Source: a virus. From it: 44,982 nt of DNA. Position 1 is the first letter of the stretch; each line of letters begins with the position of its first letter. Made by a program: the position numbers and the translations under genes. Location of the stretch: the UHGV virus genome UHGV-0308808, one strand, 5' to 3'. Below, piece after piece: positions 1 to 44,982 of this stretch. The notes under the pieces are model-generated. The model was given only the letters and a program-made list of their open reading frames with translations. It was not told the DNA's origin and ran no database searches.

Positions 1-43
1 AGATATTTTTTATTTCAAAGAATGTTCTCTTTTTACTAGGCAT
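1..43 (-). CDS. N-terminal 14 codons of the ClpP-like prohead protease. The gene continues across the window end at 44982 (circular junction). The ATG at 43..41 is preceded by the RBS GGGGGA.
   Basis: Reading the minus strand through the 1/44982 junction gives a continuous ORF, MPSKKRTFFEIKNISDDVGEIRVYGDI..., in the same frame as 43940..44982. An RBS lies 7 nt upstream of the ATG. The ORF overlaps the portal stop by 8 nt, as B-C does in lambda. Confidence 0.6.
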   Translation of the reverse strand, partial: MPSKKRTFFEIKNI

Positions 44-1535
44 TTATATTTCCCCCTATTTCTCTTTTTAACTTTTCTATCTCTGCTATTTTTAGTTCCT
101 CATCTCTTCTTGCTTCAAGTATTTCATCAAAATCTAATCCAGCTTCAGCAGCTATTATTCCTCTTGTAGTTGTGTAGTTTTCAAGGCTTTTTTGATTAGC
201 ATTAGCTTCTTTTAAAGGGTCTAAAGATGATTTTCCACTTCCTACCCATATACATCTAGTAAAAGCATACCTAATTGCACTACTCTCAAAGAAATTTGGA
301 CAATCTATATCTCCATTTTTTATGAGTTCCAATATAAACTCTTCATAAACAGGTTGGCAGAAAGTTCTTTCTAATAACTTTCTACAAGCTAGAAATCTTT
401 GGTGTGCTTCTTCTAAAGCTGCTTTTGCAGCAGAGTATGAACTCTTGAAGGAACTCATTAATACTTCGTGAGGTATCTCTAATTGAGCTCCAACCTCTTC
501 ATAAATTGCATCCACAAAATCTTTATAAGATTTATTTGGTCTAGTGGTTGTAAACTCTTTTATAGTTTCTCCCTCTTTGGCAATTATTCCTAATCCATTT
601 TCTAGTTCTATTTTTTCAGTTCTCTCTTTTTTCTCTTCATCACTTTCACCACCAAAACTTTTATTTATAAATCCTTCAGGGTCTTTTGTTTCAACAATAA
701 ATCCTAGACTAGCATTTATTGCTGCTGCTTCTAATTCAGCTCCTTTAAATCTTCCTAATTTTTTTATAGGAGCTATAATCCCAGCTATAAGAGGAACACC
801 TCTTCTTTGCCCTATTCTCTCTGGTTCAAAAATATGTAAAATATTTCTTCTCCCTAAAGAGTTAAAAACTGGATATCCTGTTACTTTTGTATAACAATCT
901 CCAGGATGCTTATCTGCGATATAGTATTTTAATAAATCTCCCTTTTCTGAAAACTCTACCCCTGCCTTTACTAAATTATTAGAAACAGCATGAGGATTTA
1001 GAACTCTATCAGCTTCTATTAATTGCAGACATAAGTCTATATCTACTCCTGCTCTCTTTTTTCTTTTTGGGATAACAAAGGCATCTCCATTCATAACCCA
1101 ACTGAGCTGGATAAGAGCTTGAAGGGTAAAGAAGTCATGCATCCGATTATAATCAGCATTTGCTGATGAAGCCCAAGCATTGAATTTTGTTTTAATTATT
1201 TTTTCAATTTCTTGAGCTTTTTCTTTAGAGATACCTATGATATTGTAATTAATAGTTGGCTTTGGTAGTAATCCTGTTCCAACTATTTTGGTTCTCATTT
1301 TCCTTAGAGCAGCTCCAGCTAACTCATTATTCATATACAGATTTCTAGATTTTGCTCTTAAATCATCTAAATCCCATAAAATATCATTATCTGGACTTTC
1401 TGATGTTACATTCCAGGTTGAAAAACTAACATCATTTTTGTTACTATATCCAACACCATTTATCATTTTTATTCTTTGATAGGTTTCAGCTTTAGGAGTA
1501 TTTTTTATAACTCTTCTATTTCTTCTTTTTCCCAT
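36..1535 (-). CDS. phage portal protein (lambda gpB-like)
   Basis: 499 aa. It lies between gpW/TerL and the protease, matching the lambda order A-W-B-C. Sequence pattern is consistent with the lambda-family portal. Confidence 0.7.
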   Translation of the reverse strand: MGKRRNRRVIKNTPKAETYQRIKMINGVGYSNKNDVSFSTWNVTSESPDNDILWDLDDLRAKSRNLYMNNELAGAALRKMRTKIVGTGLLPKPTINYNIIGISKEKAQEIEKIIKTKFNAWASSANADYNRMHDFFTLQALIQLSWVMNGDAFVIPKRKKRAGVDIDLCLQLIEADRVLNPHAVSNNLVKAGVEFSEKGDLLKYYIADKHPGDCYTKVTGYPVFNSLGRRNILHIFEPERIGQRRGVPLIAGIIAPIKKLGRFKGAELEAAAINASLGFIVETKDPEGFINKSFGGESDEEKKERTEKIELENGLGIIAKEGETIKEFTTTRPNKSYKDFVDAIYEEVGAQLEIPHEVLMSSFKSSYSAAKAALEEAHQRFLACRKLLERTFCQPVYEEFILELIKNGDIDCPNFFESSAIRYAFTRCIWVGSGKSSLDPLKEANANQKSLENYTTTRGIIAAEAGLDFDEILEARRDEELKIAEIEKLKREIGGNINA

Positions 1536-1545: not shown

Positions 1546-1764
1546 TTAACCTTTTGGTATAAATTTGACAAATCTAGGACTTCCACTTCCTTTTACTCGT
1601 TCTAATCTGTCAGCCCAAGTTTCAATGTTTTTCGAAACTTCCGAAGCATTAACTCTTGTTATAGTTCTATTTCCTATCGTGTAGCTTTGCCCTTTAGCTA
1701 AGGCTTCTTCAGCTGCTAACCACATATCAAGGTGCCGTCTACATTGTTCTTCTGTGAATATCAT
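1546..1764 (-). CDS. head-tail joining protein, gpW-like
   Basis: 72 aa, sitting between TerL and portal exactly as lambda W does. The pattern L..WLAAEEAL..GQSY.IG.R..TR resembles the gpW family. Confidence 0.55.
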   Translation of the reverse strand: MIFTEEQCRRHLDMWLAAEEALAKGQSYTIGNRTITRVNASEVSKNIETWADRLERVKGSGSPRFVKFIPKG

Positions 1765-3533
1765 TTCTTTTCTCCCTTCTTATATTTTTTATTGTTCAAA
1801 TCTACTCCTAATAACTCTATTGCTGCCGTAGCATAGTTCATTAAATCCAGAGGTTCATTTCTCCGAGCTGGAAGTACTTGCCACTCTATCTTTTCTCCTT
1901 TAGAACTTCTTACCTTTACTTTAACCTCTGCTGTTAACCCTTTAAAGAAATCTATTCCGCAACCTTTTAAAGAATCTTTAGGGAAATGACAAGTTCCAGG
2001 ACCTTCTAAAATTGTCAGTCTTGCATAGACTAAATCTTTTAAGGCATTTACTCCTAAACTTAATAAGTTAATACTAGGGACTCCTTTTTTAGTTGTTTTT
2101 CTAAAACCATTAAGGATATTTACTCCATTAGTACCAATTCCTTTTATAGCAAAAATATTTCTACTTGATTTTCCATAAACATATTTATATGTATTTCCTG
2201 TATGATGTCCACCACTGTCTATTAAGCAACAAGCTATTGGTAAAGGTCGCTTATTTTTATCTTTGAATGAAAAAGTTCTTTTTAGATAATTATTTAGTTG
2301 TATCCAGACATCTTCTTTTCCAGGAGAGCCTGGGAAATCTCTATATTGAACTACATAACTTTCAAAACCATACCCCCACCCTACTACTAAGATCTCCAAT
2401 CTGTTATCTTGAACGTCTACCCCAGCTGTTAAGAAATGAATGTTGTCATGGAGTTCTGCTCCATACTCTTCTCTCCTTTCAAACAATGCTTCATAGTCTA
2501 ATTGCTCTTCAAGATGCAGAATAAATGTTTCTCCTAATACTGTGTTAGTGAAAGTTCTCATTCTCATCTCATCATCTTTTACTTGAAGATATTCTTCATA
2601 TATTTCCTTCCAGGTTGCCCAAGGAGAAGCTAAAGCATTGAGATGAAAACTTCTATTTTTTTTCTCTTTTGGAAATTTAGCAATCCATATCCCAGATTTT
2701 TGATTCTCTCTTTTCCATTCCTCTTCTGTTCCTAATGCTCCACAATGTCTACATTCTAATTTAACAACTCCTTCATCATCTCTTATATCTTCCCATTTGA
2801 GAGGTTGATACTCCCCACAATGTTTACATTGTAGGCACCACTCTTCCTGAGAACCTTCAAGGTATAATTTTTGTATTTTAGAGGTGGTATCATCAGTTGG
2901 TGTGGATACTCTTAGCATTTTTCTATTAAAAAATGTCGCAGTTCTACGTTCAGCTAGTTTTACTGGGTCCCCCTCATCTCCTGCAGATTGAGGAAATCTA
3001 TCTACCTCATCAAGAAGAGTTATTCTTATAGGTCTAGAAGCTAGACCAGAAGGAGAGTTAGCACCAACGAATCTAACGTATCCCCCTGGGAACATTTTTC
3101 CTTGTACTGTTCCTTCTCCTTTTTTATTCGCCTGTTTAATAAGAGTTTTTAAAACTTTTGTATCTCTTATCATTGGCTCAACTCTTTCCTTTGAGAAAGC
3201 GTTGGCATCATCAACAGTAGGTTGGACAAATAAAATTGAACAAGGGTCAAGGTGCATATATCTTCCCAGGATATTTAACAACATTTCTGTTTTTCCAATT
3301 TGGCTGGAACTTTTTATAGTTACAGACTCAGTATGGCTATCTGTTAAACAATTATATATTTCTACCATATATGGTGTTCTATCAGTTCTCCATTTACCAG
3401 CTTCAGCAGCTCCCTCTTGTGATAATATCCTATATTTATCTGCCCATTCTCCAATTGTTAAATTTGGAGCTGGTTTTAAGACTTTTAATAAATCTTCAAA
3501 AAAGCTAACTGTCCTCTGTTCCATCTGTTTCAA
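1761..3533 (-). CDS. terminase large subunit, lambda GpA family
   Basis: 590 aa with an N-terminal ATPase region and Cys-pair motifs (CLQCKHCG...CRHCG) typical of GpA-type terminases. It overlaps the upstream Nu1-like gene. Confidence 0.85.
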   Translation of the reverse strand: MKQMEQRTVSFFEDLLKVLKPAPNLTIGEWADKYRILSQEGAAEAGKWRTDRTPYMVEIYNCLTDSHTESVTIKSSSQIGKTEMLLNILGRYMHLDPCSILFVQPTVDDANAFSKERVEPMIRDTKVLKTLIKQANKKGEGTVQGKMFPGGYVRFVGANSPSGLASRPIRITLLDEVDRFPQSAGDEGDPVKLAERRTATFFNRKMLRVSTPTDDTTSKIQKLYLEGSQEEWCLQCKHCGEYQPLKWEDIRDDEGVVKLECRHCGALGTEEEWKRENQKSGIWIAKFPKEKKNRSFHLNALASPWATWKEIYEEYLQVKDDEMRMRTFTNTVLGETFILHLEEQLDYEALFERREEYGAELHDNIHFLTAGVDVQDNRLEILVVGWGYGFESYVVQYRDFPGSPGKEDVWIQLNNYLKRTFSFKDKNKRPLPIACCLIDSGGHHTGNTYKYVYGKSSRNIFAIKGIGTNGVNILNGFRKTTKKGVPSINLLSLGVNALKDLVYARLTILEGPGTCHFPKDSLKGCGIDFFKGLTAEVKVKVRSSKGEKIEWQVLPARRNEPLDLMNYATAAIELLGVDLNNKKYKKGEKK

Positions 3534-3969
3534 CCTCTATTGCCCTTAAATTTTTATATTCAGAAAGCTCTTCAAGTGCTTCTGAAATGTTTTTTCTCAA
3601 AATCTCTTCTATTTCTCTACGATTAGATTTATTTAAAAGTTCTATGCTTGCTTTAACAGGAATGGCTGTCATCTTTTGTTTAAATCTTATTAGCATATCT
3701 GTAACCAGGATAGCTATGTCATCTGCCCTGTGATACTCTCCTTGTAAGATGCTAAGTTTAAATTTTTTAGTTTCTGTTTCTACTTTTCTAGCTTCAGCCA
3801 CTTCATCATCTCCAGAGGTATTTTCCACATAGATTTGTATGACTTTCTCTAGGTCATACATTCCAGGTTGCACTCTGGCTTCTTTGAAGTAAGTTCTTAC
3901 TTTTCTTTCTGAAAAGCCAAATAGCTTGGAAAGTCTATTTTCAGATGCTATTACCTCTGGTTGATTCAT
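3505..3969 (-). CDS. terminase small subunit, Nu1-like (winged HTH)
   Basis: 154 aa. The N-terminal motifs LSKLFGFSERKVRTYF...GMYDLEKVIQIYVE match the Nu1 pattern (LA.IFGVS.RTI..W....YD...VI.WY). The gene sits immediately upstream of, and overlaps, the GpA gene. Confidence 0.55.
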   Translation of the reverse strand: MNQPEVIASENRLSKLFGFSERKVRTYFKEARVQPGMYDLEKVIQIYVENTSGDDEVAEARKVETETKKFKLSILQGEYHRADDIAILVTDMLIRFKQKMTAIPVKASIELLNKSNRREIEEILRKNISEALEELSEYKNLRAIEVETDGTEDS

Positions 3970-4039: not shown

Positions 4040-4095
4040 CAAAAATCCTGGGGAACTGAAAACTTTCGGGGTCGCAAGCCCCTCGAGCTGTAATC
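4040..4095. promoter_or_regulatory. candidate cos / terminase recognition region. It is a GC-rich island containing a GGGG-TCGCAAG-CCCC hairpin, set in AT-rich non-coding DNA upstream of the Nu1-like gene.
   Basis: Read directly in the sequence. Its position matches the lambda layout, where cos lies immediately 5' of Nu1. The surrounding ~145 bp carries no ORF. Confidence 0.35.
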
Positions 4096-4114: not shown

Positions 4115-4864
4115 TTATTTGAGGACTTTAGGTTGATTATCATCATCTTTTAACTCTTTTTCTAGCTTTTTAGCTTTTAACTCTGCTAACCTTTGCTGTG
4201 CTAACTCAACAGTATTTAACTCATGCTTAGCTTCTAACTTGCTATCATATCCTAAGAGTTTTGCTATATTGGTCCAACCATTTACTGCTGCAGATATACT
4301 TATCTCAACTTTCTTTTTAGCATTCTTGTAGACTTTTCTTCCATCTGGATTAGTTTCATCATGGTATTCTGTTTCTGTGTATTCAATCCCATGTTCTGCT
4401 TTCTCTGATACCTCTACAAGTTTATTTATTACACTTCTTGCACTTAGCTTCACATCATCTTTTAACTCTTCTCTTAGTTGAGCCATTACTCTTCTTACTT
4501 TAGGATTTTTTTCTATATCAGCAGCTTTTGTTTTAGGAGAGTATCCAGCTAACTCTTTGGCTTTCTCTGGACTATTTCCGTGCAGTCTTGCTATGATGTA
4601 TATTGACTGTTTTTCTGTCAAGCCCTCAAAATTAGATATTTTTGAATTTTCTTCTAATTCTTTGGCTTCTTGAAGATACACAAGATAGTCTTCATAATAT
4701 CTTCTTACCCAAGTGTTTATAGTATTTTCAGCTATCTTTAATCTTTTAGCTATCTCTCTATACTTTTCTTTCTTGGTTTTACCAAATTTGATGGATTCCA
4801 GCTGTAAATATAATCCTAGGACTTGGAGCTTCTGCTTGTCCAAGTTCTCTATTTTTTTACTCAT
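4115..4864 (-). CDS. DNA-binding protein carrying a Terminase_2-type (SPP1 G1P-like) small-terminase HTH motif
   Basis: 249 aa. The motif LHGNSPEKAKELAGYSPKTKAADIEKNPKVRRVMAQL matches the G.N...A...AGYS.K.A......NP.V signature of TerS HTH domains. Confidence 0.45.
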   Translation of the reverse strand: MSKKIENLDKQKLQVLGLYLQLESIKFGKTKKEKYREIAKRLKIAENTINTWVRRYYEDYLVYLQEAKELEENSKISNFEGLTEKQSIYIIARLHGNSPEKAKELAGYSPKTKAADIEKNPKVRRVMAQLREELKDDVKLSARSVINKLVEVSEKAEHGIEYTETEYHDETNPDGRKVYKNAKKKVEISISAAVNGWTNIAKLLGYDSKLEAKHELNTVELAQQRLAELKAKKLEKELKDDDNQPKVLK

Positions 4865-10264: not shown

Positions 10265-11437
10265 TTAATCTTTATTTTCGGAAATATTTAGAATTACTTT
10301 AGCTTTATTTTTTTGTAAATCAATTTTATATTTTCCCATAAGAATAGAAGCCTTATAGTTTTTAGAATTAACAAAATTATCATAAAGAAAATTTAATTTA
10401 CTTAATATTGTACTATTTATTCTGAGGAAATTACATTCTGGATCCAAAACAAGAAAAGCTCTACTCATATCAGATAAGAATTTTTCATAATTTTCATCTG
10501 TATTATCTTCTGATACTATTGTAACTTTTGATAAATTTTGACTTTTAATATCAAAAGTATACTTAACATAATTTTTTTGTTTTGCTGGGATTATAAAATC
10601 AACAGTTGTTTTATTAACTTTTTCTAAATAATCCGCATTATCTATATCTCCCATACTTAAACGAGAATAATTTAATCTTTCTGGAAATTGTTTAATTGAA
10701 ATACTAAATGGATATATGTCATCTATCTCCTTTATTTTCAAGTCTGATAATGAGATATCTCCTGCTATATATTTTTCTATTTGAGATAACTGGTTTTCAT
10801 CAAAGTTTAAATTGTTTGAATAAAATGCGACATTAGAAATCTTACTATCATTTTCTTCTAAATAAAGAGTTCCAAAAGTTTGATTTCTATTATTGACAAT
10901 ATAATAAATATAAGTATTATCCTTTTTTTCTGAAGGATTTCCTAATTTAGAAAATATCTCATTTAATGAAGTTCCAACTTTTATTGGAGTTATATTTGAA
11001 ATTTGATTAATACCTAATTTACCAATAATATTTTTACTCAAAGTTAAATTATAATATTTCATTTGAGGATATAGAGCTTGAATTTCAAAATCATTTTTTC
11101 CTAATTTATTAATATTGTAATACAACTGAAAATTATTAGCATCTTTCTCAGGTCTTTTTTGAGTAAATGGAAATTTGAATGTAAAAAAATAATTTTCATA
11201 GTCTGGATTCTTCATAATTAAGTCTTCTGCAATATTTTTTAATTGCTCTTCTGTAGGAAGATTATTTTCAAATAGATTTAGAGAAACTATACCTTGTAAT
11301 TTTACTGAATTAGCTCTTTCCTGATAATAGTCATATGGAATAACTATTTTAGTATCAGGTACTTGAGATTTTTTCTCTTCATCTCCACATCCTAATAATA
11401 AACAAATAAAACAAATAAACAACGCGATTTTTTTCAT
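10265..11437 (-). CDS. lipoprotein (lipobox LLGCG), moron-like
   Basis: The N-terminus MKKIALFICFICLLLGCGDE is a signal peptide with a lipobox Cys. The gene is flanked by the 74-bp direct repeats. Confidence 0.6.
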   Translation of the reverse strand: MKKIALFICFICLLLGCGDEEKKSQVPDTKIVIPYDYYQERANSVKLQGIVSLNLFENNLPTEEQLKNIAEDLIMKNPDYENYFFTFKFPFTQKRPEKDANNFQLYYNINKLGKNDFEIQALYPQMKYYNLTLSKNIIGKLGINQISNITPIKVGTSLNEIFSKLGNPSEKKDNTYIYYIVNNRNQTFGTLYLEENDSKISNVAFYSNNLNFDENQLSQIEKYIAGDISLSDLKIKEIDDIYPFSISIKQFPERLNYSRLSMGDIDNADYLEKVNKTTVDFIIPAKQKNYVKYTFDIKSQNLSKVTIVSEDNTDENYEKFLSDMSRAFLVLDPECNFLRINSTILSKLNFLYDNFVNSKNYKASILMGKYKIDLQKNKAKVILNISENKD

Positions 11438-11477: not shown

Positions 11478-11551
11478 AATCTACTGAATAGAGTGTCCTA
11501 GAGTTAAAAAAGACTTGGCGGTCGGTCTAGGATGCTCTCTTGAGTAGATTA
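11478..11551 (+). repeat. 74-bp direct repeat, copy 2
   Basis: 72/74 identical to 9292-9365. Confidence 0.8.
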
Positions 11552-11776
11552 GTTCTGTGAAGTTTCTTCATCTGGGATATACTCGATTATATCTGTAATT
11601 TGACAATTAAAAAATTTACATAGTTTTGCAACTGTTTCAAAACTTACAGTTTCAAGTCTATCTCCATTATAAATTTTTCTTAAAGTTTCACGGCTAATAT
11701 TTACCTGTCTTGATAATTCAGTAACATTTTTAATTTTTTTATCAAGCATAATGTAACCAAGATTAGATTTTAGCAT
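11549..11776 (-). CDS. XRE-family HTH transcriptional regulator (repressor-like), divergent from the plus-strand early operon
   Basis: 75 aa. HTH segment: IKNVTELSRQVNISRETLRKI...VSFETVAKLCKFFNCQITDI. Confidence 0.65.
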   Translation of the reverse strand: MLKSNLGYIMLDKKIKNVTELSRQVNISRETLRKIYNGDRLETVSFETVAKLCKFFNCQITDIIEYIPDEETSQN

Positions 11777-14501: not shown

Positions 14502-14810
14502 ATGCTATTTAGAGATTTGTTTGAGAAATATAAAGATAAAATAATTGATTTCAAAGTTTTTCATCCTGCTTTTTATTTTCATGAGTATGATGTTGCAGAT
14601 AAATTTTTATTACAGATATTCAGTGAAAGTTCGATGCCAAGTTTGGCATTTGATAACACTATCTTTCTTCTAGAAAATGAAGATTTAGTAATAGAAGAAA
14701 CAGAATCTGAAAGAAAAATAAAAAGAGGAAAAGAATATGTAGAAATGATATTTAGAATTAGCCAAGATAGAAGAGTGAAGGTACAGTTGGAGGGAGATAT
14801 AAATGAGTAG
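14502..14810 (+). CDS. hypothetical protein
   Basis: 102 aa. The RBS GGAGGGGAG lies upstream. Confidence 0.4.
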   Translation: MLFRDLFEKYKDKIIDFKVFHPAFYFHEYDVADKFLLQIFSESSMPSLAFDNTIFLLENEDLVIEETESERKIKRGKEYVEMIFRISQDRRVKVQLEGDINE

Positions 14811-15495
14811 AGTGGTTCTAATCAAAGCAAATAAAGGAGGAGTTGGAAAATCTTGGATAACTCTTCAGTTAGCACATAAAGCTGCTCTTGATGGAAATAA
14901 AGTTATAATAATTACTTCTGATAGTCAAAATAATATTTTGGATTTTAGTGGGAATGGTAGTCTTACTCCACTAGGGTTAGATGAATGGCTTAAAAGTGGT
15001 AATGGTGGGTTCACAGAGTTAAGAAAAAACCTTTATTATATCCCATTTCACTCGGCTGTACTTCCAGAGGAATTAGAAGTAAGATTTGAGAGTTTTATCA
15101 ATGTTTTAAAAGGAGAGTTTGATTATATCTTCATTGATTCTACACCTGTGTTGAACTTGGATAAAAAATTTATAGACTTAGCAGATGAAGTAGTTATCCC
15201 AACTTTCCTTGATCAAGTAACTTTAGGTTCTATAATTACTTTAATGGAGCAAATAAGTCCTAAAAGTAAAGTTAAAGCTATTATTCCAAATCGTACTGGG
15301 AGAACCAAGCTTGAGAGAGAGTACTATGATAATTTAAAGAAGATTGTTTCTCAAAATATTTTACTTTCTGTTCCTATAAAACAAAGTTCTTTCATTTCAA
15401 AAGCTATTGATGAAGGAAAAACAATTTGGGAATACAGAGCAAAAGATGCTGTGACACTTCAAGAATTATTTTTACAGGTTCTGGAGGTGTTATGA
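14803..15495 (+). CDS. parA: ParA/MinD-family partition ATPase
   Basis: The deviant Walker A KGGVGKS appears in the sequence LIKANKGGVGKSWITLQLA. Length is 230 aa. Confidence 0.8.
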   Translation: MSRVVLIKANKGGVGKSWITLQLAHKAALDGNKVIIITSDSQNNILDFSGNGSLTPLGLDEWLKSGNGGFTELRKNLYYIPFHSAVLPEELEVRFESFINVLKGEFDYIFIDSTPVLNLDKKFIDLADEVVIPTFLDQVTLGSIITLMEQISPKSKVKAIIPNRTGRTKLEREYYDNLKKIVSQNILLSVPIKQSSFISKAIDEGKTIWEYRAKDAVTLQELFLQVLEVL

Positions 15496-18690: not shown

Positions 18691-19224
18691 ATGGAGTTTA
18701 TAACTAAATTAAAATTAGAGGATAAGGTTGTGGTCACAGATCCTTGCTACTGTTACGAACCACAAAGAGGGATAGTACTTTTGAATATCCAAGCTGGAGA
18801 ATATAAATGTTGTGTTATTTATAATAAAGAAAACAGAGTAAAAGAAGCAATAATTTTACATGAAAGCTTATCAATTTATGAGCAAGAAGGTTATTTGTGG
18901 TTACAGGATGGCTTCATTTATGTTGATGCTGCCATAGCTGGAGTGATTAATTATAGCTTACATGAAGAGATGAGAAGATGTAAAAATAGGAATGAAAAAA
19001 AATGGGAAGATAAATATTATAGAGAAATATGCGAGTTATTCTCCCAAGATACCGATGCTATATGTTTTAGAGAAAACTCTTTCATTACTAGTACTGGATG
19101 GGGTGATGGAAGATATGAAGTTTATGTTACTAAGAACAATAATAAAATCCTTGGTATAAAAATAATCTATGACGAGGATGAAGAAGAGTTTGAAGATGAC
19201 TGGGAAGATGAAGAAGAATACTAA
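18691..19224 (+). CDS. hypothetical protein with an acidic C-terminal tail (DEDEEEFEDDWEDEEEY)
   Basis: 177-aa ORF driven by promoter-leader copy A. Confidence 0.45.
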   Translation: MEFITKLKLEDKVVVTDPCYCYEPQRGIVLLNIQAGEYKCCVIYNKENRVKEAIILHESLSIYEQEGYLWLQDGFIYVDAAIAGVINYSLHEEMRRCKNRNEKKWEDKYYREICELFSQDTDAICFRENSFITSTGWGDGRYEVYVTKNNNKILGIKIIYDEDEEEFEDDWEDEEEY

Positions 19225-19375: not shown

Positions 19376-20809
19376 ATGTCGAATAGTTCTTCTTTTCCTG
19401 CTAAAATTTCAGCTATTTATTGCAGGGAAAGCACAGAAAAGCAAAATATACAAAGTCTTATAGATATGTGTAAAAAAGCTGCTAAAAAAATAAATCTTCA
19501 AAATATAAAAGTTTATTATGATGTAGCATCTGGGTACAATAAAGACAGAGAACAATATAGTAAATTAAAAGAAGATATCCAAAATAATTTAGTTGATACT
19601 TTAGTATTGTATGAAAGTTCTAGGCTTACAAGAGATGAATTGGAGCATCATATATTTTATGGATTATTAAGAGTTCATAATGTTAAAGTTTATACTGTTA
19701 CACATGGTTGGTTAGACTTACAAGATGCTGATGATACCTTTCTGACTAATCTTTTAAATTTATTAGATGCTAGAGAGGGAAGGAAAACAGCTAAAAGAAG
19801 TAAGGACAGAATGACTGAATTAGCAGAGCAAGGGAGATGGACTGGAGGACCAGCTCCCTTGGGATATAAATTAGTTAATAAAGAGCTGGTAATAGTTCCA
19901 GAGGATGCAGAAAAGGTTAAAACTATTTTTAAACTTTTTCTTGATGGAAAAACCAGACAATCCATTGCTAATTTTTTTGGATATGAAGTAAAAAAGGTTA
20001 GAAGATTATTAGAAAATCCCGTCTACATTGGAAAATTAAAATTCCATTCTGTTGAAATAATTAATAAGAAAAAAATTCTTCATAAAGATTATAAAGTGTT
20101 GAATGGGATCCATGAGCCTATTATAGATGAAAGTACTTTTTCCCTGGTACAAGGTAAATTAAAAAATATTAAGGTTGAAAGAAATACAGATGTATATATC
20201 TTTAAAGATTTAATAAAATGTACTTGTGGAAGAAAGATGTATCGGGTTGTAAATAAATATAATTATTTAAAAAAATCAACCAATGAAATTTCTAGAAAAA
20301 CAGAGAACCTATATTATTGTAGAACTTCTGATAAATATAAAAGTCTTGGGTGTGGTGCTATTGGTATTCATGAAGAAGAGTTATTTGAAGAAGTTATGGC
20401 TTCTTTAAAAAAAATTATTTTTTCTTTAGAAGTAGAGAACATTGATACCAAATTTGATGATTATCAATCTCAATTAGTTCTTTATAAAAAAGAGTTGGCT
20501 TCTCTCTCTGGAAAAGAAGAACTCCTAGCCAGGCAGTTATTAAACTCTCTTATATCTGAGGAAGTTTTCGAAAAGTTAATGAAAGAGTTAAAAGAAAAAA
20601 AGGCGTTCCTGGAGGAAAAAATCAAAAATTTAACTACATTAATTACTAATAAAAAAAATACTAATAAAAATTCAGAGATATTAAAAAAATATTTTTTTAA
20701 ATTAGAAAAGGAAAAAGCTCCAGAAAAAATAAATAATTTTTTAAAACTTATAATAGATGAAATCGAAATGGTAAATGATTATAGATTCTACATCCATTTA
20801 AAATTTTAG
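19376..20809 (+). CDS. large serine recombinase (resolvase/invertase catalytic domain, recombinase domain and zinc ribbon)
   Basis: The N-terminus has AIYCRESTEKQ, the serine-recombinase catalytic motif. C-terminal Cys clusters are CTCGRKMY and YYCRTSDKYKSLGC. Length is 477 aa. Confidence 0.8.
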   Translation: MSNSSSFPAKISAIYCRESTEKQNIQSLIDMCKKAAKKINLQNIKVYYDVASGYNKDREQYSKLKEDIQNNLVDTLVLYESSRLTRDELEHHIFYGLLRVHNVKVYTVTHGWLDLQDADDTFLTNLLNLLDAREGRKTAKRSKDRMTELAEQGRWTGGPAPLGYKLVNKELVIVPEDAEKVKTIFKLFLDGKTRQSIANFFGYEVKKVRRLLENPVYIGKLKFHSVEIINKKKILHKDYKVLNGIHEPIIDESTFSLVQGKLKNIKVERNTDVYIFKDLIKCTCGRKMYRVVNKYNYLKKSTNEISRKTENLYYCRTSDKYKSLGCGAIGIHEEELFEEVMASLKKIIFSLEVENIDTKFDDYQSQLVLYKKELASLSGKEELLARQLLNSLISEEVFEKLMKELKEKKAFLEEKIKNLTTLITNKKNTNKNSEILKKYFFKLEKEKAPEKINNFLKLIIDEIEMVNDYRFYIHLKF

Positions 20810-21405: not shown

Positions 21406-21583
21406 TGTTTTATTCGTTTGTATTTTCGGTTTTTTTCTTGCGGAAAAGACCAATTCCATCTCCAAATGGTTGCTGGTTTAATAAAAAAATAAATATATCT
21501 ATGCCCCCAGCATTTCTCCTTTATTACTAATTATAGCATTTCTAATTTTAATAAACAATATTTTTCTAATTTCCTTAGAAATG

Positions 21584-21664: not shown

Positions 21665-22045
21665 ATGGAATATAAAGATTATAGGGATTATATGTATGAT
21701 GATTTAGAAAAAAGAGAAGAAAATTTAAAAATAATAGCTGAAATTGCAGGAGATATGTTTGATGATTTCCTGGAAAAAACACAAAGGCAATATGAAAGAG
21801 GAAGCTTATATCTTGTGGCTGAACTAGAAGTGAATGATGAATTAGAAAATTATATTGAAATGGACAAAGAAGAATTAAAAGTTTTCTATGCTACTACATT
21901 AAGAACTTTAAAAAAGTTTTTAGGTGATGACCTAAATGGAATGGGAATTTTTGAAAGTTATTCAATAATTGAAAGGATTAAATATTCATATACGGGTAAA
22001 GTAAAAAAGATTATTTTAACTGTAGAAACAACTGTAAAAAGTTAG
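21665..22045 (+). CDS. hypothetical protein
   Basis: 126-aa ORF driven by promoter-leader copy B. Confidence 0.45.
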   Translation: MEYKDYRDYMYDDLEKREENLKIIAEIAGDMFDDFLEKTQRQYERGSLYLVAELEVNDELENYIEMDKEELKVFYATTLRTLKKFLGDDLNGMGIFESYSIIERIKYSYTGKVKKIILTVETTVKS

Positions 22046-24920: not shown

Positions 24921-25880
24921 TTAAATTAGCCCTTTTTCTCTCTTTAATTGCCTAATTTTTTCTCTATTTTCTGCCCCTGTTTTTGCTTTAATATAATGCT
25001 CTCTAGTAGTATTTATATTATTATGATTAGCAAATTCAGAAGCTGTATTTATATCTGCTATATTCTTTAAAAGGTTTATAGCTGTTTTTCTGAGAGTATG
25101 AGGGTATAACTTATCATTTCCTAATAACTCTCCTATCTTTTTTATTCTACTTCTAATAGTAGATTGAGCCATCTGTCTACATTGTCCACCTTCCTTTGTT
25201 ATAAATAAATAATCTGATACTAAATTATTCTCTTTTCTATACTCTAGCCATTCTTGTAACACCTTTTCAGTATTATCAAGAAAAATTACATCAACTATCT
25301 TATTACCTTTTTCTTTTACATCTTTAAAATACCCCTCTTTTAAGTTTAATTGTGAAAGTTTTAAATTTTGTATTGCTGAAATTCTATTAGCACTTTCTAG
25401 GAATAATTCCCAAAGTAATCTAGATTGAATATCAAATTTCTTTGAATTATGTTGCATAAGTATTCTAGCTTTGATTATGTCCTCTATTGTAAGATAATAG
25501 CTTTCTCTTCTCTTATCAAAACTACCTTTTTTTAACCTATCTAATTTATGCTGAAATGGATGATGAGATATTAAATCTCTTTTCACACACCAGATATAGA
25601 ATGAAGAGATAGCTGTAAGCTTGTTATTTATTGTCTGATTATTGTTACCAGCTTCCCTACAATGATTTATATACCTCTCTAAAATAGAGACACAATTTTT
25701 TATTGTACTATCGCTTAATAATAGTCTATTCCCTTCATATTTCTGTAAATACTTCATATACTGTTTCATATTACTCTTATAAACTCTATAAGTAGTATTT
25801 AAAGTTTCATAGTTCCTTGCTTTGTTACTCTCTAAATACATTTGATAAACTTCCATATTAGCTTTGTTAAATTTTTCCAT
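24921..25880 (-). CDS. tyrosine site-specific recombinase, proposed shufflon recombinase (Rci-like role). The start is re-assigned to ATG 25880 (MEKFNK), preceded by AGGAGGA.
   Basis: Catalytic residues are conserved: the Arg in ESANRIS, the His/Arg in HTLRKTAIN, and the Tyr in REHY. The gene sits immediately next to the half-site at 25934-25947. Confidence 0.75.
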   Translation of the reverse strand: MEKFNKANMEVYQMYLESNKARNYETLNTTYRVYKSNMKQYMKYLQKYEGNRLLLSDSTIKNCVSILERYINHCREAGNNNQTINNKLTAISSFYIWCVKRDLISHHPFQHKLDRLKKGSFDKRRESYYLTIEDIIKARILMQHNSKKFDIQSRLLWELFLESANRISAIQNLKLSQLNLKEGYFKDVKEKGNKIVDVIFLDNTEKVLQEWLEYRKENNLVSDYLFITKEGGQCRQMAQSTIRSRIKKIGELLGNDKLYPHTLRKTAINLLKNIADINTASEFANHNNINTTREHYIKAKTGAENREKIRQLKREKGLI

Positions 25881-25933
25881 TTTGTTAAAATCCTCCTGTA
25901 ATTTAATTTTGACACTATATTGTATCAAATTTT

Positions 25934-27062: not shown

Positions 27063-27073
27063 TTACAGAATTT
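27052..27073. repeat. crossover site 3, perfect 22-bp palindrome
   Basis: Read directly. Confidence 0.85.
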
Positions 27074-27353: not shown

Positions 27354-27357
27354 ATAT

Positions 27358-27627: not shown

Positions 27628-27638
27628 TTACAGAATTT
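27617..27638. repeat. crossover site 4, perfect 22-bp palindrome
   Basis: Read directly. Confidence 0.85.
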
Positions 27639-27927: not shown

Positions 27928-28178
27928 ATTCCAATTGCTAGCCAAGGAATTTTTACACTATTAGGTTTCCCAGATACTCCCCAGTTTGTATCGTTAAAAT
28001 TAAAACTAGTTAAAGTCCATGAAATAGTTGGAGTATTACCAGATGTTATAACAGTAAAAACTGAACTTTTAAAAGGAATAGGAAAACTTTTACTTCCAGT
28101 TGTTGTAGCTCCAGTTTGAATAATAAGTCCATTGGTAAATTGGATATATTTACCAATGGAGTTAGAATTTAATACCTG
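27924..28178 (-). other. orphan cassette C (-), 84 aa: TGLNSNSIGKYIQFTNGLIIQTG...KIPWLAIGI. It is homologous to cassette G but lacks its own crossover site, and begins 1 nt after the cassette B stop in the +1 frame.
   Basis: Manual translation. It shares SK.FP.PF and TPTISWT motifs with G. Confidence 0.5.
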
Positions 28179-28512
28179 TTATTTTAAAGATAGATGAACC
28201 ACCATCTTTACCAAAAATATAAAAGGATTGTTTATTAGCTAAAAATCTATAATCAAGACTCCCACCTTTTGGTAATAAATATCTATCTCCAATTTGATTA
28301 TCACTAGTACCATCAGAATATTTTAAATCAGTTACTAAAATAAATTGACTTTCTTCATCTACTTGTCTTGTTCCAGTCCAATTGCCATAAGTAATTATAA
28401 TAGCATCAAAGTTAGTAAGTGGTTTATTTAAATTCAATACAGTATTATTTGGAGATTGTGAAGTTGTATTATATAAAATTTCTATTTTAAATGTAGATAA
28501 ATTCTGTAATTT
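28162..28512 (-). other. silent cassette B (-), 116 aa: KLQNLSTFKIEILYNTTSQSPNNTVLNLNKPLTNFD...ITGIKF. It lies directly 3' of the fiber stop, in the same orientation.
   Basis: In-frame from site 5. It includes track ORF 28162..28437. Confidence 0.65.
28499..28512 (-). repeat. crossover site 5 (half-site AAATTACAGAATTT on the minus strand), immediately after the fiber stop codon
   Basis: Read directly. Confidence 0.8.
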
Positions 28513-30498
28513 TTATATATATGGGAAAAAGGTTATAGATTGAGAGTCATACCCTCCTGCACAATAGATTACGTCTTCTTTCTTTACGGGATATATTAAT
28601 CTAGTAGCAGAACTATCTCTTGTTCTATAATCTAGATTAGTACCATTTATCCTTATTGTAGTAGTTATATCATTTGAACCATAGAAGTGTATCTGAATAA
28701 TTCCATCTTGAAGTATTGTGTTATTTTTACTCCAATTTAATTTTTGTCCTTTTGAATAGTCAGGAGTTCTATTGAAATTCTGTAATTTACCCAATAAATC
28801 ATTATTAGATATTGCTTCAAAGTAATTTGCGTCTGCATAGTTTATACTTGTAGCTTTTATACATTTGTAAACTTTTTTTGTGGTACTATCATAATAGGCA
28901 TAGTTTACTGTCTTTGCACTAGAAGTATTAAGACTTCCTCCGTATGTAAGTCCTAATATCTCGGCTAATTTAGCTCCTTCTAATACTGTATTTGAAGTAG
29001 TTCCAAAATTTTTATTAAAAGCTCCATTTTTTTTGAAGGCTGGTTCTGCTCCTATTCCACTAGCTGTAATATTAATACTTTTAGCTGCTGCTCCATCATA
29101 GCTCACTGGATTTTGTCCATTCATCTTTATTTCAAGAGCATTAGGATTTTTCATACTTGTTGGAAAATCTGTAATATTTGCTTTTGTATGAGTATGACTA
29201 GAATCAGCAGCTCCTATGCTAGCTGGAGTAATATTAATATTTTTAGTAGCTGCTCCATCATATGTATAAGCAGTTCCACTATTTAATTGAATAGATAAGG
29301 CATAAGGATTTTTCATACTAGCAGGAAAGTCTGTGATATTTGCTTTTGTATGAGTATGACTGCTTGGAGTAAAAGAATTAGGTTTTCCTGTAATATCACT
29401 CCAAGTAATATTTGTCCATTGAGCAGCTCCAGATGATAACCATTTTAGAAAATTTCCACTAACCCCATTTGCAGGTATATGATTATTTCCATTCCCAGTA
29501 GGATGAGTATATTCAGGAGTTCCATGTAATGTTCCATCTTCATCAACTGTTAAATTATTCCCTACCTTTATTCTTCCTAATTGTGTTTTAGTTGCTTTTT
29601 TTACTAGCTCATTATAAAGTTCATTAATGGCTCCAACTATTGTTTTTACCACGGTTTTTAGAGTGCTATCTTCTTTATTTTGTTTAGTTTCATTTAAAAT
29701 TTTTCCTTGTTTACCTGAAAGAGCTTTTGTAGTACTATCAGTTGTAAGATTATCTACTACATTTAATTGAATATCATTATCATTAACAATAATACCATCA
29801 TTTTTAGATACAATAGAGGTCCTTCCAGAACTATCAACAGTTAATCCTTTACCTATAATTATTCTTCCTAATATAGTTTTTGATGCTATTTTAGAAATTT
29901 CTGTTAATAAGTTCTGTGCAGTACCAGTATAACCACCTTTATCTAATTTATTAGTAAAAAGTTCATTTATTGCTTCCCAAACAATTTTGGCAGCTGTCAA
30001 TAATCTATTTTCATGTAAATTTTGTTTTTTAGCCAATTCTTTATCTAAATATTCTTTATCTACCCATAATTCTTTTCCTGTCCAGTTAACTATTGTAGTT
30101 TCATTATTAGTAGCCATTATATTAACATAATATCTAAATTTGATTGGTGTCTTGCTTGCTGGCGGCATCCAGGTAGCTTCATCACCTTCATTTATATACC
30201 AGTACAGAATTTCTTCTTCTTCATCTAATGCGTATATTCCTATTTCTCTTGGAAAGTATCCAGTTTCAATATCTTCATTACTAAATAGTACAGTTAATTT
30301 CAAATTATTTTCTATTTGTTTTTTTTCTAATATTTCAACTTCTTGTTTTATTGCTTTTATATTAGTAAATGTGCTAGGATCCTCATCATCTGATATTTTT
30401 CCATCTCCTATTTTTACTTTAACTAATTTTATTCCTTCTCCTGTTGCTTGGCATTTTGCTAAATATTCGCTCCCTCTCTTTGTAATACCATCAAACAT
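28513..30498 (-). CDS. tail fiber protein. The currently expressed variable C-terminus (cassette A) runs 28513-28788.
   Basis: 661 aa, Ser/Thr/Gly/Asn-rich. It contains internal near-repeats HTHTKANITDFP[AT]SMKNP. It lies downstream of the baseplate genes and is followed by the shufflon. Confidence 0.75.
   Translation of the reverse strand: MFDGITKRGSEYLAKCQATGEGIKLVKVKIGDGKISDDEDPSTFTNIKAIKQEVEILEKKQIENNLKLTVLFSNEDIETGYFPREIGIYALDEEEEILYWYINEGDEATWMPPASKTPIKFRYYVNIMATNNETTIVNWTGKELWVDKEYLDKELAKKQNLHENRLLTAAKIVWEAINELFTNKLDKGGYTGTAQNLLTEISKIASKTILGRIIIGKGLTVDSSGRTSIVSKNDGIIVNDNDIQLNVVDNLTTDSTTKALSGKQGKILNETKQNKEDSTLKTVVKTIVGAINELYNELVKKATKTQLGRIKVGNNLTVDEDGTLHGTPEYTHPTGNGNNHIPANGVSGNFLKWLSSGAAQWTNITWSDITGKPNSFTPSSHTHTKANITDFPASMKNPYALSIQLNSGTAYTYDGAATKNINITPASIGAADSSHTHTKANITDFPTSMKNPNALEIKMNGQNPVSYDGAAAKSINITASGIGAEPAFKKNGAFNKNFGTTSNTVLEGAKLAEILGLTYGGSLNTSSAKTVNYAYYDSTTKKVYKCIKATSINYADANYFEAISNNDLLGKLQNFNRTPDYSKGQKLNWSKNNTILQDGIIQIHFYGSNDITTTIRINGTNLDYRTRDSSATRLIYPVKKEDVIYCAGGYDSQSITFFPYI
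28775..28788 (-). repeat. crossover site 6 (half-site), inside the fiber gene, encoding KLQNF at the constant/variable boundary
   Basis: Minus-strand reading gives ggt AAA TTA CAG AAT TTc, translating GKLQNF. Confidence 0.8.
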
Positions 30499-39203: not shown

Positions 39204-40622
39204 TTAAGCTGAAAATAGATTATTATAATAGTTTGTATCTATTTCACAATCAAACTCAGCATATTCCATAGGTAATGCTGGACTAAAATAAATTTTAAAT
39301 TTTACTTTTCCATCTAATAATGATGTTATAGGGTTATCCTCTTCTCTGAACTCTATTCTTCCACCTATTAGCATTCCAGAGGCTTGTAAACCATTCAACC
39401 ATATATTTATACTATCTTTAAAGTTCTTTATGAGATTATTATTTGTAGGTTTATCTATTTTATCCCAGAAGTTTGTAATTAAAGTATTATTCAAGAAATT
39501 AAACATCATTCTTGAAGCTATAAAATTATCTTTAGCATCCATCACTGCTGGATAGCATCCTGTTCTATTCCCCCAAGCTTTCCATCCACCTATCCAGTTA
39601 ATAACTGTTCCTATTCCATTACCATTAAGATAATTTGCCTGATTAATAGCTAATAAAACATCTGTGCCATTTGCTAGACAAGTTCTATCAGCTTTTATAT
39701 TAATATTTGATGGAGAACGATAAGGTACACCATTAGACTCAGATGCTAATTGTTGAATTAAACAAGCTATTTGAGTAGAAATATGGTATTGTAATTCACC
39801 AAGTGCCACTTTAGGATAATATACTGCTAAATTAGTTGAACTTAGATTATTAGTTTCTTTAGTAGCAGGAGCTTCTGTATATTTAGTAATTGTTTTAGTG
39901 TCTATATCTACTAAAGCCAATGCTTTAAAATGTCCATTTATCAATTTCGCTTTTGTTTCCATGACAGCAGCAACTGTGCTATCAGTAGAATATTTTGGAG
40001 CTAGTACTAAGTTTGGAACTAATCTAGTTACTGGGAATACATCTTCTATACATTCCAATCCTTTATTTCTACCTGTTCCTGCATCTATTCCCCCAATGAT
40101 ATCATCAGCTTCTATCATGCTTGGGTCTAATTTATCAAAAGCTATTTGAATATTATTTCCTTCTGGCAATTCTTCAGCAGTTATTATTAAGTCAACATAT
40201 CCATCATCATCAAAAGTTGCTATAAACTCCTTTTCTGGAGTTAATTGGATAGTTTCTTTTATAATCCCTAGTTCTTTTATTTTTATAGTTTTATCCTCTC
40301 CAATTGGTACACTATCTTGAGTTACACTTTTCTTATGTGTTCCAGGGTCAAGGACATTTATAAGTACAATAGGTGCTACTCCAAATTTGCTAAAATGTGC
40401 ATCTATGGCTTCACACAAAGTGTAATTCTCAAAGTCTTTTACATATCCAAATGCAGCTATTGCTTCAGCATAAGTATTACATAAAACTACTTTATTTATA
40501 TTTTTTTCTTCACATAAATTTATAGGAGCTGTTCCTACATAAACAGGTGTTATCCCATCAACTTTTATTGCTGTTATAGCTGTAGGTGTCTCTGTAGTTC
40601 CTATTCCATGTTTAAATGCCAT
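39204..40622 (-). CDS. tail sheath protein
   Basis: 472 aa. The N-terminus is MAFKHGIGTTE. Confidence 0.75.
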   Translation of the reverse strand: MAFKHGIGTTETPTAITAIKVDGITPVYVGTAPINLCEEKNINKVVLCNTYAEAIAAFGYVKDFENYTLCEAIDAHFSKFGVAPIVLINVLDPGTHKKSVTQDSVPIGEDKTIKIKELGIIKETIQLTPEKEFIATFDDDGYVDLIITAEELPEGNNIQIAFDKLDPSMIEADDIIGGIDAGTGRNKGLECIEDVFPVTRLVPNLVLAPKYSTDSTVAAVMETKAKLINGHFKALALVDIDTKTITKYTEAPATKETNNLSSTNLAVYYPKVALGELQYHISTQIACLIQQLASESNGVPYRSPSNINIKADRTCLANGTDVLLAINQANYLNGNGIGTVINWIGGWKAWGNRTGCYPAVMDAKDNFIASRMMFNFLNNTLITNFWDKIDKPTNNNLIKNFKDSINIWLNGLQASGMLIGGRIEFREEDNPITSLLDGKVKFKIYFSPALPMEYAEFDCEIDTNYYNNLFSA

Positions 40623-42558: not shown

Positions 42559-43584
42559 TTACTCTGCATCACATACTACAACTGAGAAATAAGCATCCAA
42601 ATCCATTGGTTGTAATACTGGTCTTGATTCAGTAGAAATAATTTTAGATTTTTTATTTGGTGTAGAAACATCACTAAATCTCTGAACTATATGCATGTCT
42701 GTTTCTCCCATATTGATAATTGGTGCATATAATATTTCCCCACCGACAGGAGCTCCTATTATCATATTTGTAGGCATTAATTGAATTGGTTTGCCATCAT
42801 GCCCAATTACTTTTCTTGAATATCTAAATAATTCGACACCATATGTTTTATATGTTCCTAACCACACTACCCCTGGGTATTCTCTAACAACTGTTTTTAC
42901 AAATTCGGATTGTAAATCTTTACTCAACATATCCTTTTTAAATTCAGAAGAGTTCATAAATTTTTCAGCAGCTGCCATTCCCATAACAACATTTCTTATA
43001 ATTATTCCACTCTCTTCAGCTTCTGCTAATATTTTGTCTAAAGATACAAGAGGATTTACTCCAGATTCTCCCCATTTACTTCCCCCAGACAGAGTTGATT
43101 GATTTTCTAATCCATAATCTACTTCATAACTCTCTTCTCCTGTAGTAGAAGTTACTTTCCCTGTTGTTAAAAATTGTGCAACCATTAATTCTTCTTTGTT
43201 TGAAATATATTTTTCCTGGTCAGCTAATATTTCAGCAATTCTTTTTCCTATTCTTTGTGATGGATTATATTCTCCAGTAACATTCATTCCAGCTTCTCTG
43301 ACAAAGTAATCTTTAGGACCTAAAGTTCTCTCAACAGCAATATTAGGTGCTGTAATTAAATTAGTTTTTGTTTTTCTATCTACTATTGGTTTTCCTAGCT
43401 CTAAAGGTGTTACAAATGCAGCTATATGTTCTCCTGATTTAGTAATTTCAAGCATAATCTCTTCAGTTGTAACAGTAGAACTTTTACTAAAAAATAAATC
43501 TTTTAAAAAGTTTTTTCTTATTGGAGCCTGTTCTCTTATTTTTCTTATTGTTTTTGGTGTATATAAATCAAATCCTTGTGGCAT
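42559..43584 (-). CDS. major capsid protein, lambda gpE-like
   Basis: 341 aa. It follows a ~110-aa decoration-like gene and a protease, as the lambda order C-Nu3-D-E. Confidence 0.65.
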   Translation of the reverse strand: MPQGFDLYTPKTIRKIREQAPIRKNFLKDLFFSKSSTVTTEEIMLEITKSGEHIAAFVTPLELGKPIVDRKTKTNLITAPNIAVERTLGPKDYFVREAGMNVTGEYNPSQRIGKRIAEILADQEKYISNKEELMVAQFLTTGKVTSTTGEESYEVDYGLENQSTLSGGSKWGESGVNPLVSLDKILAEAEESGIIIRNVVMGMAAAEKFMNSSEFKKDMLSKDLQSEFVKTVVREYPGVVWLGTYKTYGVELFRYSRKVIGHDGKPIQLMPTNMIIGAPVGGEILYAPIINMGETDMHIVQRFSDVSTPNKKSKIISTESRPVLQPMDLDAYFSVVVCDAE

Positions 43585-43596: not shown

Positions 43597-43929
43597 TTAT
43601 CTTAAAAATATTCCTATTTTTCTTAATTCTTGTTTAAGTTTCAGTTTTTTACCTGCATCTGATGGGAGTAAAACAAAACTTTCCATTAAATATGCTGCCA
43701 ATATACATTCACAATTTACTGGATCACTTGAAAAAGTAACTCCTTGAGTGGCTACTGCATATGGTGTTGTATATGTACTTTCATCATATTTGCCATAATT
43801 ACCTTCAGCATCTACTCCTATTACATCTCCTTCAATTACTGTTGTTTTAAGAGGCAAACTTTGAGCGACTAAGGGATAATCTCCATAGAAAATTTGTTTT
43901 TCCTCATTTGTGAATTTAGTATTATTCAT
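43597..43929 (-). CDS. head decoration protein, gpD-like
   Basis: 110 aa, between the protease/scaffold and the capsid gene. Confidence 0.45.
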   Translation of the reverse strand: MNNTKFTNEEKQIFYGDYPLVAQSLPLKTTVIEGDVIGVDAEGNYGKYDESTYTTPYAVATQGVTFSSDPVNCECILAAYLMESFVLLPSDAGKKLKLKQELRKIGIFLR

Positions 43930-43939: not shown

Positions 43940-44982
43940 CTATTTTATTCCTAATTCTGCTAATGCAGCACTTACAATGTCATTTTCCATTTGCTCTTTA
44001 GAGTTTCCTAGTGTTCCAGATTGAATATCATAAATTCCAGCATCTTTTTTCTCTTCTTCAATAAGATTTATTTCTCTTCCAGCTTTTTCAGCATTTAAGT
44101 TGTATAAATCAACTATTACATCTCTATAATCTCTTACTTCATCAAATTTAGCTTTATTTACTATTTCTCTTGCAGCTTCTGAAGTAACTTTTATATTATC
44201 TAGTGCTTTTATTCTTTTTCTTTCTTCCTTAATAGCTGCATCAATAGCATTTTTTACAGTGTCTGTTCCTTTGATTTTGTCAATTACCTCTTTCTCATAA
44301 GCTTGTAAAAGTTCTGGGTGTTGCACTTTTAAATCTTGCAGTGTCATTTTTTCCTCCTTGTTTTCTTGTAAAATATCTTTTAATTTTTCTGGGATAGCTA
44401 GATTTTTAAGTTCTGGGGTAAATACATTTGAAATGTTTAAATTACTTATAGAACTATCATAATTAGCTATCTCATCTATAAAACCAGCTTGTAAAGCTTC
44501 TTCAGCTGTATACCAAGTTGTTTTATCCATTTTTTCTGCTATCTCATCTCTTGATAATTTGCATTTCTCTTCATATAAGTCTAAAAGATTGTCTTTTGTT
44601 TTATTCAAGTGTTCAATAGCTTCGTTCATTTCTTCGACATTAGCATACCCCATATACATTAATGGGTTATGTATCATAAAATAGCACCCTTTCCCCATTA
44701 TTGTTTTATTAGCTGCCAATGTTAATATCGTGGCAGCTGAAGCAGCCATTCCGTCTATATAAGCTGTTACTTCTTTTCCTTGAGCAAATCTTTTTATTTC
44801 GTGATACATAGCAACAGCTTCAAACACATCTCCACCAGGAGAGTTTATTTTTAGTTCTAATTTTTTTACATTTTTAAGATTTGCTAGTTGCTTAGAAAAT
44901 GTTACTGAACTTGTTTCTCCATACTCTTCCCAAGCCCATTTACAAATATCTCCATATACTCTTATTTCTCCTACATCATCAG
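43940..44982 (-). CDS. ClpP-like (S14) prohead protease fused to a scaffold-like C-terminal domain. The 5' end continues across the window end to the ATG at position 43.
   Basis: The motifs LKINSPGGDVFEAVAMY, GMAASAATIL and FMIHNP are ClpP Ser/His-region signatures. The C-terminal ~150 aa is charged and coiled-coil. Confidence 0.75.
   Translation of the reverse strand, partial: DDVGEIRVYGDICKWAWEEYGETSSVTFSKQLANLKNVKKLELKINSPGGDVFEAVAMYHEIKRFAQGKEVTAYIDGMAASAATILTLAANKTIMGKGCYFMIHNPLMYMGYANVEEMNEAIEHLNKTKDNLLDLYEEKCKLSRDEIAEKMDKTTWYTAEEALQAGFIDEIANYDSSISNLNISNVFTPELKNLAIPEKLKDILQENKEEKMTLQDLKVQHPELLQAYEKEVIDKIKGTDTVKNAIDAAIKEERKRIKALDNIKVTSEAAREIVNKAKFDEVRDYRDVIVDLYNLNAEKAGREINLIEEEKKDAGIYDIQSGTLGNSKEQMENDIVSAALAELGIK

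Follow-up and report, generated by a model that had tools for sequence, protein, structure and literature searches.

The described phage nearest to UHGV virus genome UHGV-0308808, the 44,982-nucleotide (nt) stretch of DNA analysed here in its entirety and called the window below, is Funu1 (KR131710), a prophage of Fusobacterium nucleatum 7_1. Both genomes have the order small terminase (terS), terminase, adaptor of 72 amino acids (aa), portal, protease, decoration protein of about 105 aa, capsid protein E, sheath, tube and tape measure, and both carry an internal Shine-Dalgarno motif plus ATG inside the protease gene. The terminases share 68% and the proteases 46% identity end to end, and nucleotide identity is about 68–73% in the head and packaging genes, although the DNA-level alignment is partial only and the host is F. 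mortiferum rather than F. nucleatum. The records differ as well: Funu1 is a linear 39.9-kb record with an intact protease gene, whereas in the window this gene is divided between the two ends, at the boundary of bases 44982 and 1 (44982/1). Here, we show that the split is without biological meaning and that 44982/1 is only a linearisation point. With a probability of about 0.9, the window is the complete, circularly closed genome of a temperate F. mortiferum phage, a myophage of about 45 kb carrying an intact phage attachment site (attP form), and the contig behind it represents the excised or replicating circular form of this relative of Funu1. No paper describing this F. mortiferum phage was found in the literature. 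The proteins already stand in public databases under correct names.

The region also resembles that of lambda (Nu1-A-W-B-C/Nu3-D-E) in gene order, in the families of its large terminase (TerL), portal and capsid protein (Phage_cap_E), in having a small decoration protein at the position of D and a small adaptor at that of W, and, putatively, in a scaffold gene nested in frame in the 3' third of the protease gene. It differs from lambda in a protease that is ClpP-type (S14) and not S49 like gpC (Peptidase_S49 scores 23.5 bits, below its cut-off of 24.9; the best match, CLP_protease, belongs to the same clan), in a W-position protein that matches DUF6148 and not Pfam gpW, in a contractile tail with a P2-type baseplate in place of a siphovirus tail, and in a large serine recombinase, the likely integrase, where lambda has the tyrosine recombinase Int. 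An earlier sequence-only reading had called the order lambda-like once the ends are joined; this holds for the packaging and head genes but not for the ClpP-type protease or the contractile tail. With the ClpP-related head maturation proteases (NF045542, PF00574), by comparison, score, Ser-His-Asp motifs and gene position are all alike and nothing notable differs.

Read on the minus strand, the protease frame begins with an ATG at 43..41, passes through base 1 to base 44982 and ends with a stop at 43942..43940, open throughout over 361 codons (1086 nt). The start context AATAGGGGGAAATATAAATG consists of GGGGGA (56..51), a 7-nt spacer and the ATG. The portal gene (36..1535, minus) ends with TAG at 38..36 and overlaps the protease gene by 8 nt (ATGCCTAG). 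This uninterrupted frame, with its start, ribosome-binding site and portal overlap, had been proposed from the letters alone, and all coordinates and sequences proved correct. The boundary cuts codon 15 after its first base (T|CT, Ser). The linear record thus contains a 43-nt stub on the left (1..43, minus; codons 1–14 and the first base of codon 15), which aligns with the Funu1 protease from residue 1, and a 1043-nt piece on the right (43940..44982, minus), which runs from the last two bases of codon 15 to the stop and encodes a ClpP-like domain, recognised by CLP_protease, NF045542.1, phrog_94 and alignment with ClpP 1y7o, followed by a charged C-terminal domain. A listing of open reading frames (ORFs) on the linear record yields just a 295-aa fragment with a GTG start (43940..44827). 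Comparison of the two window ends revealed no terminal repeat common to both.

The joined protein, which begins MPSKKRTFFEIKNISDDVGEIRVYGDICKW and contains the motif LKINSPGGDVF, scores 150.5 bits against NCBIfam NF045542.1 ('head maturation protease, ClpP-related'; curated cut-off 120 bits) and covers profile positions 2–165 of 165, whereas the 295-aa fragment reaches 102.3 bits, under the cut-off, and covers positions 48–165 only. Pfam CLP_protease (PF00574) matches the joined protein at 5.2e-28 (98.6 bits against a cut-off of 20.2), and the best of the PHROG head-maturation-protease families, phrog_94, matches at 1e-60 from residue 3. The Funu1 protease aligns from residue 1 to the end (E 3e-104), without a gap at the residues that straddle the boundary. 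The exact 361-aa protein is recorded on 170 contigs, the longest of which is of chromosome scale (2,783,165 bp), and near members of its cluster carry the NCBI name 'head maturation protease, ClpP-related [Fusobacterium mortiferum]' (WP_204715622.1). Family score, homologue, exact protein and the continuity of the DNA described below confirm that the joined ORF is more than chance.

To follow the DNA itself across the boundary, a junction probe was built from the last 600 nt and the first 600 nt of the window. It aligns ungapped over 1200 nt at 99.2–99.5% identity in ten ENA metagenome contigs of 68–235 kb. Three IMG/VR contigs also align ungapped, one over 1200 nt (96.7% identity), one over 1195 nt (99.2%) and one over all of the 969 nt that it offers (99.0%). 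In whole-window alignments, bases 1 and 44982 fall next to one another in 13 independent contigs, which makes a frameshift or extra bases at 44982/1 unlikely. A chromosomal prophage segment whose ends happen to join in frame would have to rely on coincidence. A stretch of 14 codons may well be open by chance, but the exact joined protein on 170 contigs and the ungapped junction in 13 contigs refute this explanation, as do the lack of host genes in the window and an attP that is intact where integrated copies hold host DNA; its probability is negligible.

The window is most probably a trimmed and rotated copy of a circular contig. Positions 9376–29018 are identical to ENA ERZ27267859:k141_143944 (100.00% over 19,643 nt, the portion seen), a contig of 45,123 bp, and 45,123 − 141 = 44,982, the length of the window. 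MEGAHIT at k = 141 leaves an identical overlap of 141 nt at both ends of a circular contig, and such a k-mer end overlap is a standard completeness criterion for circular metagenome-assembled phage genomes. Base 1 of k141_143944 maps to window position 29,018, inside the tail-fibre gene, which would place the 141-nt end overlap, and with it the assembler's closure point, at 28878..29018. This segment occurs only once in the window, and independent contigs (L042, L032–L039) run across it. The boundary 44982/1 is interior to the source contig and to every integrated copy, hence the split gene shows that the record was rotated and linearised. Like other circular metagenome-assembled phage genomes, the contig has a size of genome plus k, full phage modules and an intact attP; it differs in that the origin of the window now lies within the protease gene instead of at the contig end, and 44982/1 is therefore not the closure point.

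The biologically meaningful closure is attP (21453–21466) and not 44982/1; it is there that a circle can be told from a prophage. Comparison of the attP, attR and attL junctions gives a 14-bp core, ATTCCATCTCCAAA, that occurs once in the window (21453..21466) and is the place at which integrated copies are broken by host DNA. Among 70 fetched loci, 27 contain attR (L015–L021 and others) and 14 contain attL (L023–L030 and others), flanked by genes of F. mortiferum; the look-up lists the longest contigs first and so favours integrated copies. At attR (27 loci), the serine-recombinase gene and a 187-aa gene are followed by host genes for an O-methyltransferase, rsmB, mgtE, a LacI regulator, a GH42 beta-galactosidase, a major facilitator superfamily (MFS) transporter and melibiase. 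At attL (14 of 14 loci), a 126-aa gene (21665..22045) is preceded by host genes that include metH, minCDE, peptidase M29, a PRK-family kinase, peptidase M16, DUF1904 and DUF6173. The predicted bacterial site attB (CTAAATAGTCCT-core-AGGAAGAAGTACAA) is matched exactly in 8 further metagenome contigs, likewise of F. mortiferum chromosomes. Four of them were examined, and on both sides of the site they have the host DNA seen at attL and attR, free of phage DNA.

The window has attP and lacks attL, attR and attB, and no host DNA was recognised in it. Its aligned segments lie inside the attL–attR interval of integrated copies, and some variable stretches (for example, 16,200–17,490) are found in the source contig only. 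The 21-mers around attP all occur just once in the window, so that a de Bruijn assembly (k ≥ 21) could not have made the attP join falsely from a 14-bp core; we infer that reads across attP must have existed. A search of IMG/VR with the attP 37-mer gave no match. The sequence-only reading had concluded that the window is not a chromosomal prophage segment and had suggested a search for junctions with host DNA. The conclusion stands, with the refinement that the phage is usually integrated elsewhere, and the junctions were located in other loci, at the attP core, with none at 44982/1. This is an integrating temperate phage that is usually chromosomal in F. mortiferum.

In the host chromosome, the O-methyltransferase gene adjoining rsmB has the 14-bp core at its 3' end. 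In lysogens the stop codon of this gene lies in phage-derived DNA, so that the phage replaces the 3' end of the gene. A tRNA scan of the window found none, hence attP is not derived from a tRNA gene. NCBI names the proteins of the host flanks as Fusobacterium mortiferum (RsmB AVQ18864.1, O-methyltransferase AVQ18865.1, MinD AVQ18935.1), and a close portal variant, AVQ18895.1, belongs to the same accession series; a genome on deposit, that of F. mortiferum ATCC 9817, thus apparently has the prophage too. A 2.78-Mb polished contig contains an integrated copy. A contig scan with the serine recombinase gave just a 27%-identical match in an unrelated metagenome-assembled genome, and the GTDB species representative is apparently without the prophage. 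The G+C content of the window is 29.1%.

The likely integrase is a large serine recombinase (19376..20809, plus; Resolvase 7.3e-23, Recombinase 1.5e-13, Zn_ribbon_recom 9.8e-07; phrog_95 integrase 2.4e-75). The assignment follows from its proximity to attP: the gene stops 644 nt short of the core and always adjoins attR in integrated copies. A tyrosine recombinase (24921..25928) was also considered and rejected as the main candidate, given its position 3.5 kb from attP and directly beside inversion cassettes.

A near-identical second contig, L042 (ERZ17988949 NODE_805; 45,158 bp, five samples), is 99.96–100% identical to the window over the 23 kb seen and spans both 44982/1 and 28,878–29,018 internally. 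It carries one extra 162-nt (54-aa) repeat in the fibre gene, giving a fibre of 715 aa against 661 aa in the window. The repeat lies at 29134–29361 of the window (fibre gene 28513..30498), with about 1.4 copies there and about 2.4 in L042; the number in the window is too low for Tandem Repeats Finder, which missed the 162-nt unit when run on the fibre gene. The difference in copy number may be a real polymorphism or a collapse of the repeat in short-read assembly, in which case the true genome could be 45,144 bp. By arithmetic, L042 would have its two ends exactly on the att core (45,158 = 44,982 + 162 + 14), as expected if those samples held both attP and attL/attR junctions, that is, a mixture of excised and integrated phage. 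A larger genome, considered because contigs of about 70 kb recur in the assemblies, was rejected; these contigs consist of the prophage plus host flanks.

The attP junction could also come from a prophage integrated twice in tandem, head to tail, with the assembler emitting a circular-looking unit. Phages that integrate site-specifically are known to form tandem polylysogens, and this one is usually integrated (attR in 27 and attL in 14 of the fetched loci). No fetched contig has attP together with attL or attR, however, and the source contig closes on itself without host DNA, which makes a tandem arrangement very unlikely. The 45,158 bp of NODE_805 fit a core-bounded phage unit, which is compatible with the free-circle and tandem models alike. 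Another explanation is that the phage was an extrachromosomal circular plasmid-prophage in this sample, partitioned by a ParA-like ATPase, and not a transient form. A ParA/CbiA-type ATPase of 230 aa is indeed encoded at 14803..15495 (AAA_31 2.6e-13, CbiA 5.8e-12), and the contig is circular with an intact attP. The ATPase nevertheless scores only 57.8 bits against ParA_partition NF041546 (cut-off 180 bits), leaving generic CbiA and AAA_31 matches, and the phage has a serine integrase and a full set of att sites and is integrated in every other contig seen; a plasmid-prophage is accordingly highly improbable. Hardly more credit can be given to a combination of two lysogenic lifestyles, integration at attB plus a stable 45-kb episome partitioned by the ParA-like protein, in which the window would be the episomal state in a gut community. 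Within 14803–16439, the ATPase gene of this integrating phage is followed by one for a protein of 314–337 aa without assigned function.

With the circle closed, the late operon is unbroken and reads terS, terL, adaptor, portal, protease, decoration protein, capsid protein and contractile-tail genes. All are on the minus strand: terS at 3505..3969 (phrog_57 2e-20); terL, of the lambda gpA type, at 1761..3533 (GpA_ATPase 1.4e-76, GpA_nuclease 3.5e-76); the 72-aa head–tail adaptor in the position of gpW at 1546..1764 (DUF6148 1.8e-13, phrog_118 1.3e-19); the lambda-family portal (Phage_portal_2 2.2e-82; TIGR01539 209.7 bits against a cut-off of 172.7); the head decoration protein in the position of gpD at 43597..43929 (phrog_19421 9.6e-14); the major capsid protein of the lambda E family at 42559..43584 (Phage_cap_E 1.4e-29); and the tail sheath at 39204..40622 (phrog_23 6.9e-81). 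Downstream of the sheath come the tube (Phage_tube), tape measure, baseplate proteins of the P2 GpU, gpJ and gpI types (P2_GpU, Baseplate_J, Tail_P2_I) and fibre.

Assemblies of phages packaged by the headful mechanism, with circularly permuted and terminally redundant virion DNA, also close into circles, and such packaging would account for the circle seen here. TerL proteins of the lambda gpA type go with cohesive (cos) ends, and with such a TerL cos ends are expected over circular permutation. The window TerL has both the ATPase and the nuclease domain of gpA, and the portal and head genes are of lambda families. A further and likewise indirect argument is a G+C-rich island, CAGCTCGAGGGGCTTGCGACCCCGAAAG (4060..4095, minus), which lies upstream of terS in a gap of 146 nt, between the motifs AAGGTACTGTC and AGTTTGCCAAAA that are conserved in Funu1. 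With low confidence, this candidate is either the cos site or the terminator of the upstream 249-aa helix-turn-helix (HTH)/terminase-small-like gene (4115..4864). Headful packaging is thus very unlikely, and by analogy with lambda the virion DNA is probably linear with cos ends near terS. The sequence-only reading had offered a complete genome that was either circular or circularly permuted; the circle is upheld by the intact attP and the 13 contigs, while the gpA-type TerL makes circular permutation the less likely of the two.

Several points weigh against a free circular phage genome, or against details of it. attP was found in the source contig alone among the 70 fetched loci, every other copy being integrated, and a tandem double lysogen would contain an attP junction too. 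The 141-nt end overlap comes from arithmetic (45,123 against 44,982), the exact genome size may depend on the assembler, given the difference in the 162-nt repeat, and cos ends near terS are a prediction from the type of TerL. We nevertheless favour the complete circular phage genome. The record would then be a rotated, overlap-trimmed circular metagenome contig, presumably opened arbitrarily after the first base of protease codon 15. In lysogeny, the circle would be opened at attP (21453–21466), presumably by the adjacent large serine recombinase, and inserted into the host chromosome at the 3' end of the O-methyltransferase gene, beside rsmB, and the virion would probably carry linear DNA with cohesive ends near terS.

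The main value of this result is practical, namely correct annotation, and it is ordinary and unsurprising to phage biologists. If the record is annotated as linear, the protease lacks its first 66 residues and appears as the sub-threshold 295-aa GTG fragment; annotation as a circle makes the gene and the late operon whole again. As a complete genome, the window can serve as reference for a temperate F. mortiferum phage, for which attP, attB, host and, as judged from adjacency, integrase are now defined. One protein of the phage is indexed in 1000 blocks of the assembly collection, hence the phage appears widespread in metagenomes.

Alignment of the protease with Streptococcus pneumoniae ClpP 1y7o (GMAASMGT, MIHQP, RD) points to a putative catalytic triad of Ser96 (GMAASAAT), His119 (MIHNP) and Asp167, the codons of which are all on the 44982 side of the boundary. 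The gene lies between the portal and major capsid genes, in the same order in 13 or more contigs, and as a member of the ClpP-related family its predicted role is the cleavage of scaffold and capsid proteins during prohead maturation. The last 135–170 residues or so are outside the protease domain and presumably act as scaffold; 37% of the final 135 are charged. The sole in-frame start with a Shine-Dalgarno motif within the gene is an ATG at 44347..44345 (Met227) preceded by AAGGAGG, and Funu1 has AGGAGG plus ATG at the homologous position despite differing adjacent residues. Based on this start, its conservation in Funu1 and the charge, a nested in-frame ORF of 135 aa (43940..44347, minus) is a probable scaffold gene within the protease gene, analogous to Nu3 inside lambda gene C.

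The C terminus of the tail fibre is subject to a multi-site inversion system at 25,933–28,790, with six crossover sites (25933–47, 26539–62, 27051–74, 27616–39, 28492–511 and 28770–87; core AAATTCTGTAATT / AATTACAGAATTT), of which three are back-to-back pairs. The cassettes encode alternative C termini as small ORFs ending in ...WLAIGY or ...WLAIGV, with weak matches to Gp53-like_C. Segments are inverted or permuted in other copies (L023, L032, L037 and L039), and the fibres measure 661, 673, 715, 727, 728 or 740 aa. The tyrosine recombinase at 24921..25928 (Phage_integrase 8e-26; called product 319 aa) adjoins the cassettes. Among described systems, this inversion system comes closest to the Rin shufflon of Bifidobacterium prophages (PMC6109161), which it resembles more than the serine-invertase systems Gin, Cin and Min. 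The shufflon probably explains why several assemblies break there.

Just upstream of the terminase genes, as in Funu1, lies an N6/N4 DNA methyltransferase gene (4857–6176; PADLOC MTase_II 1.9e-96), probably an orphan, anti-restriction methylase. A variable cargo island at about 7,900–11,500, next to a Cro/CI-type HTH gene (11549..11776), was compared among L002–L011, L016–L021 and L051–L060 and looks like a hotspot for defence or moron genes. In the window it holds ORFs of 120 and 81 aa and an orphan ORF of 390 aa (10265..11437); neither the orphan nor its neighbours gave a match in Pfam, PHROG or PADLOC. In other copies the island is occupied by DUF2321, YjcQ, a SWIM-domain protein, or a 401-aa AAA_15/SMC_N ATPase paired with a protein of 308 aa. 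The early region has another such variable stretch, at about 16,200–19,260, which contains several small ORFs and a DUF4241 protein (18691..19224) in the window, and a HicA/HicB toxin–antitoxin pair plus a Bro-N/ANT antirepressor-like gene in other copies.

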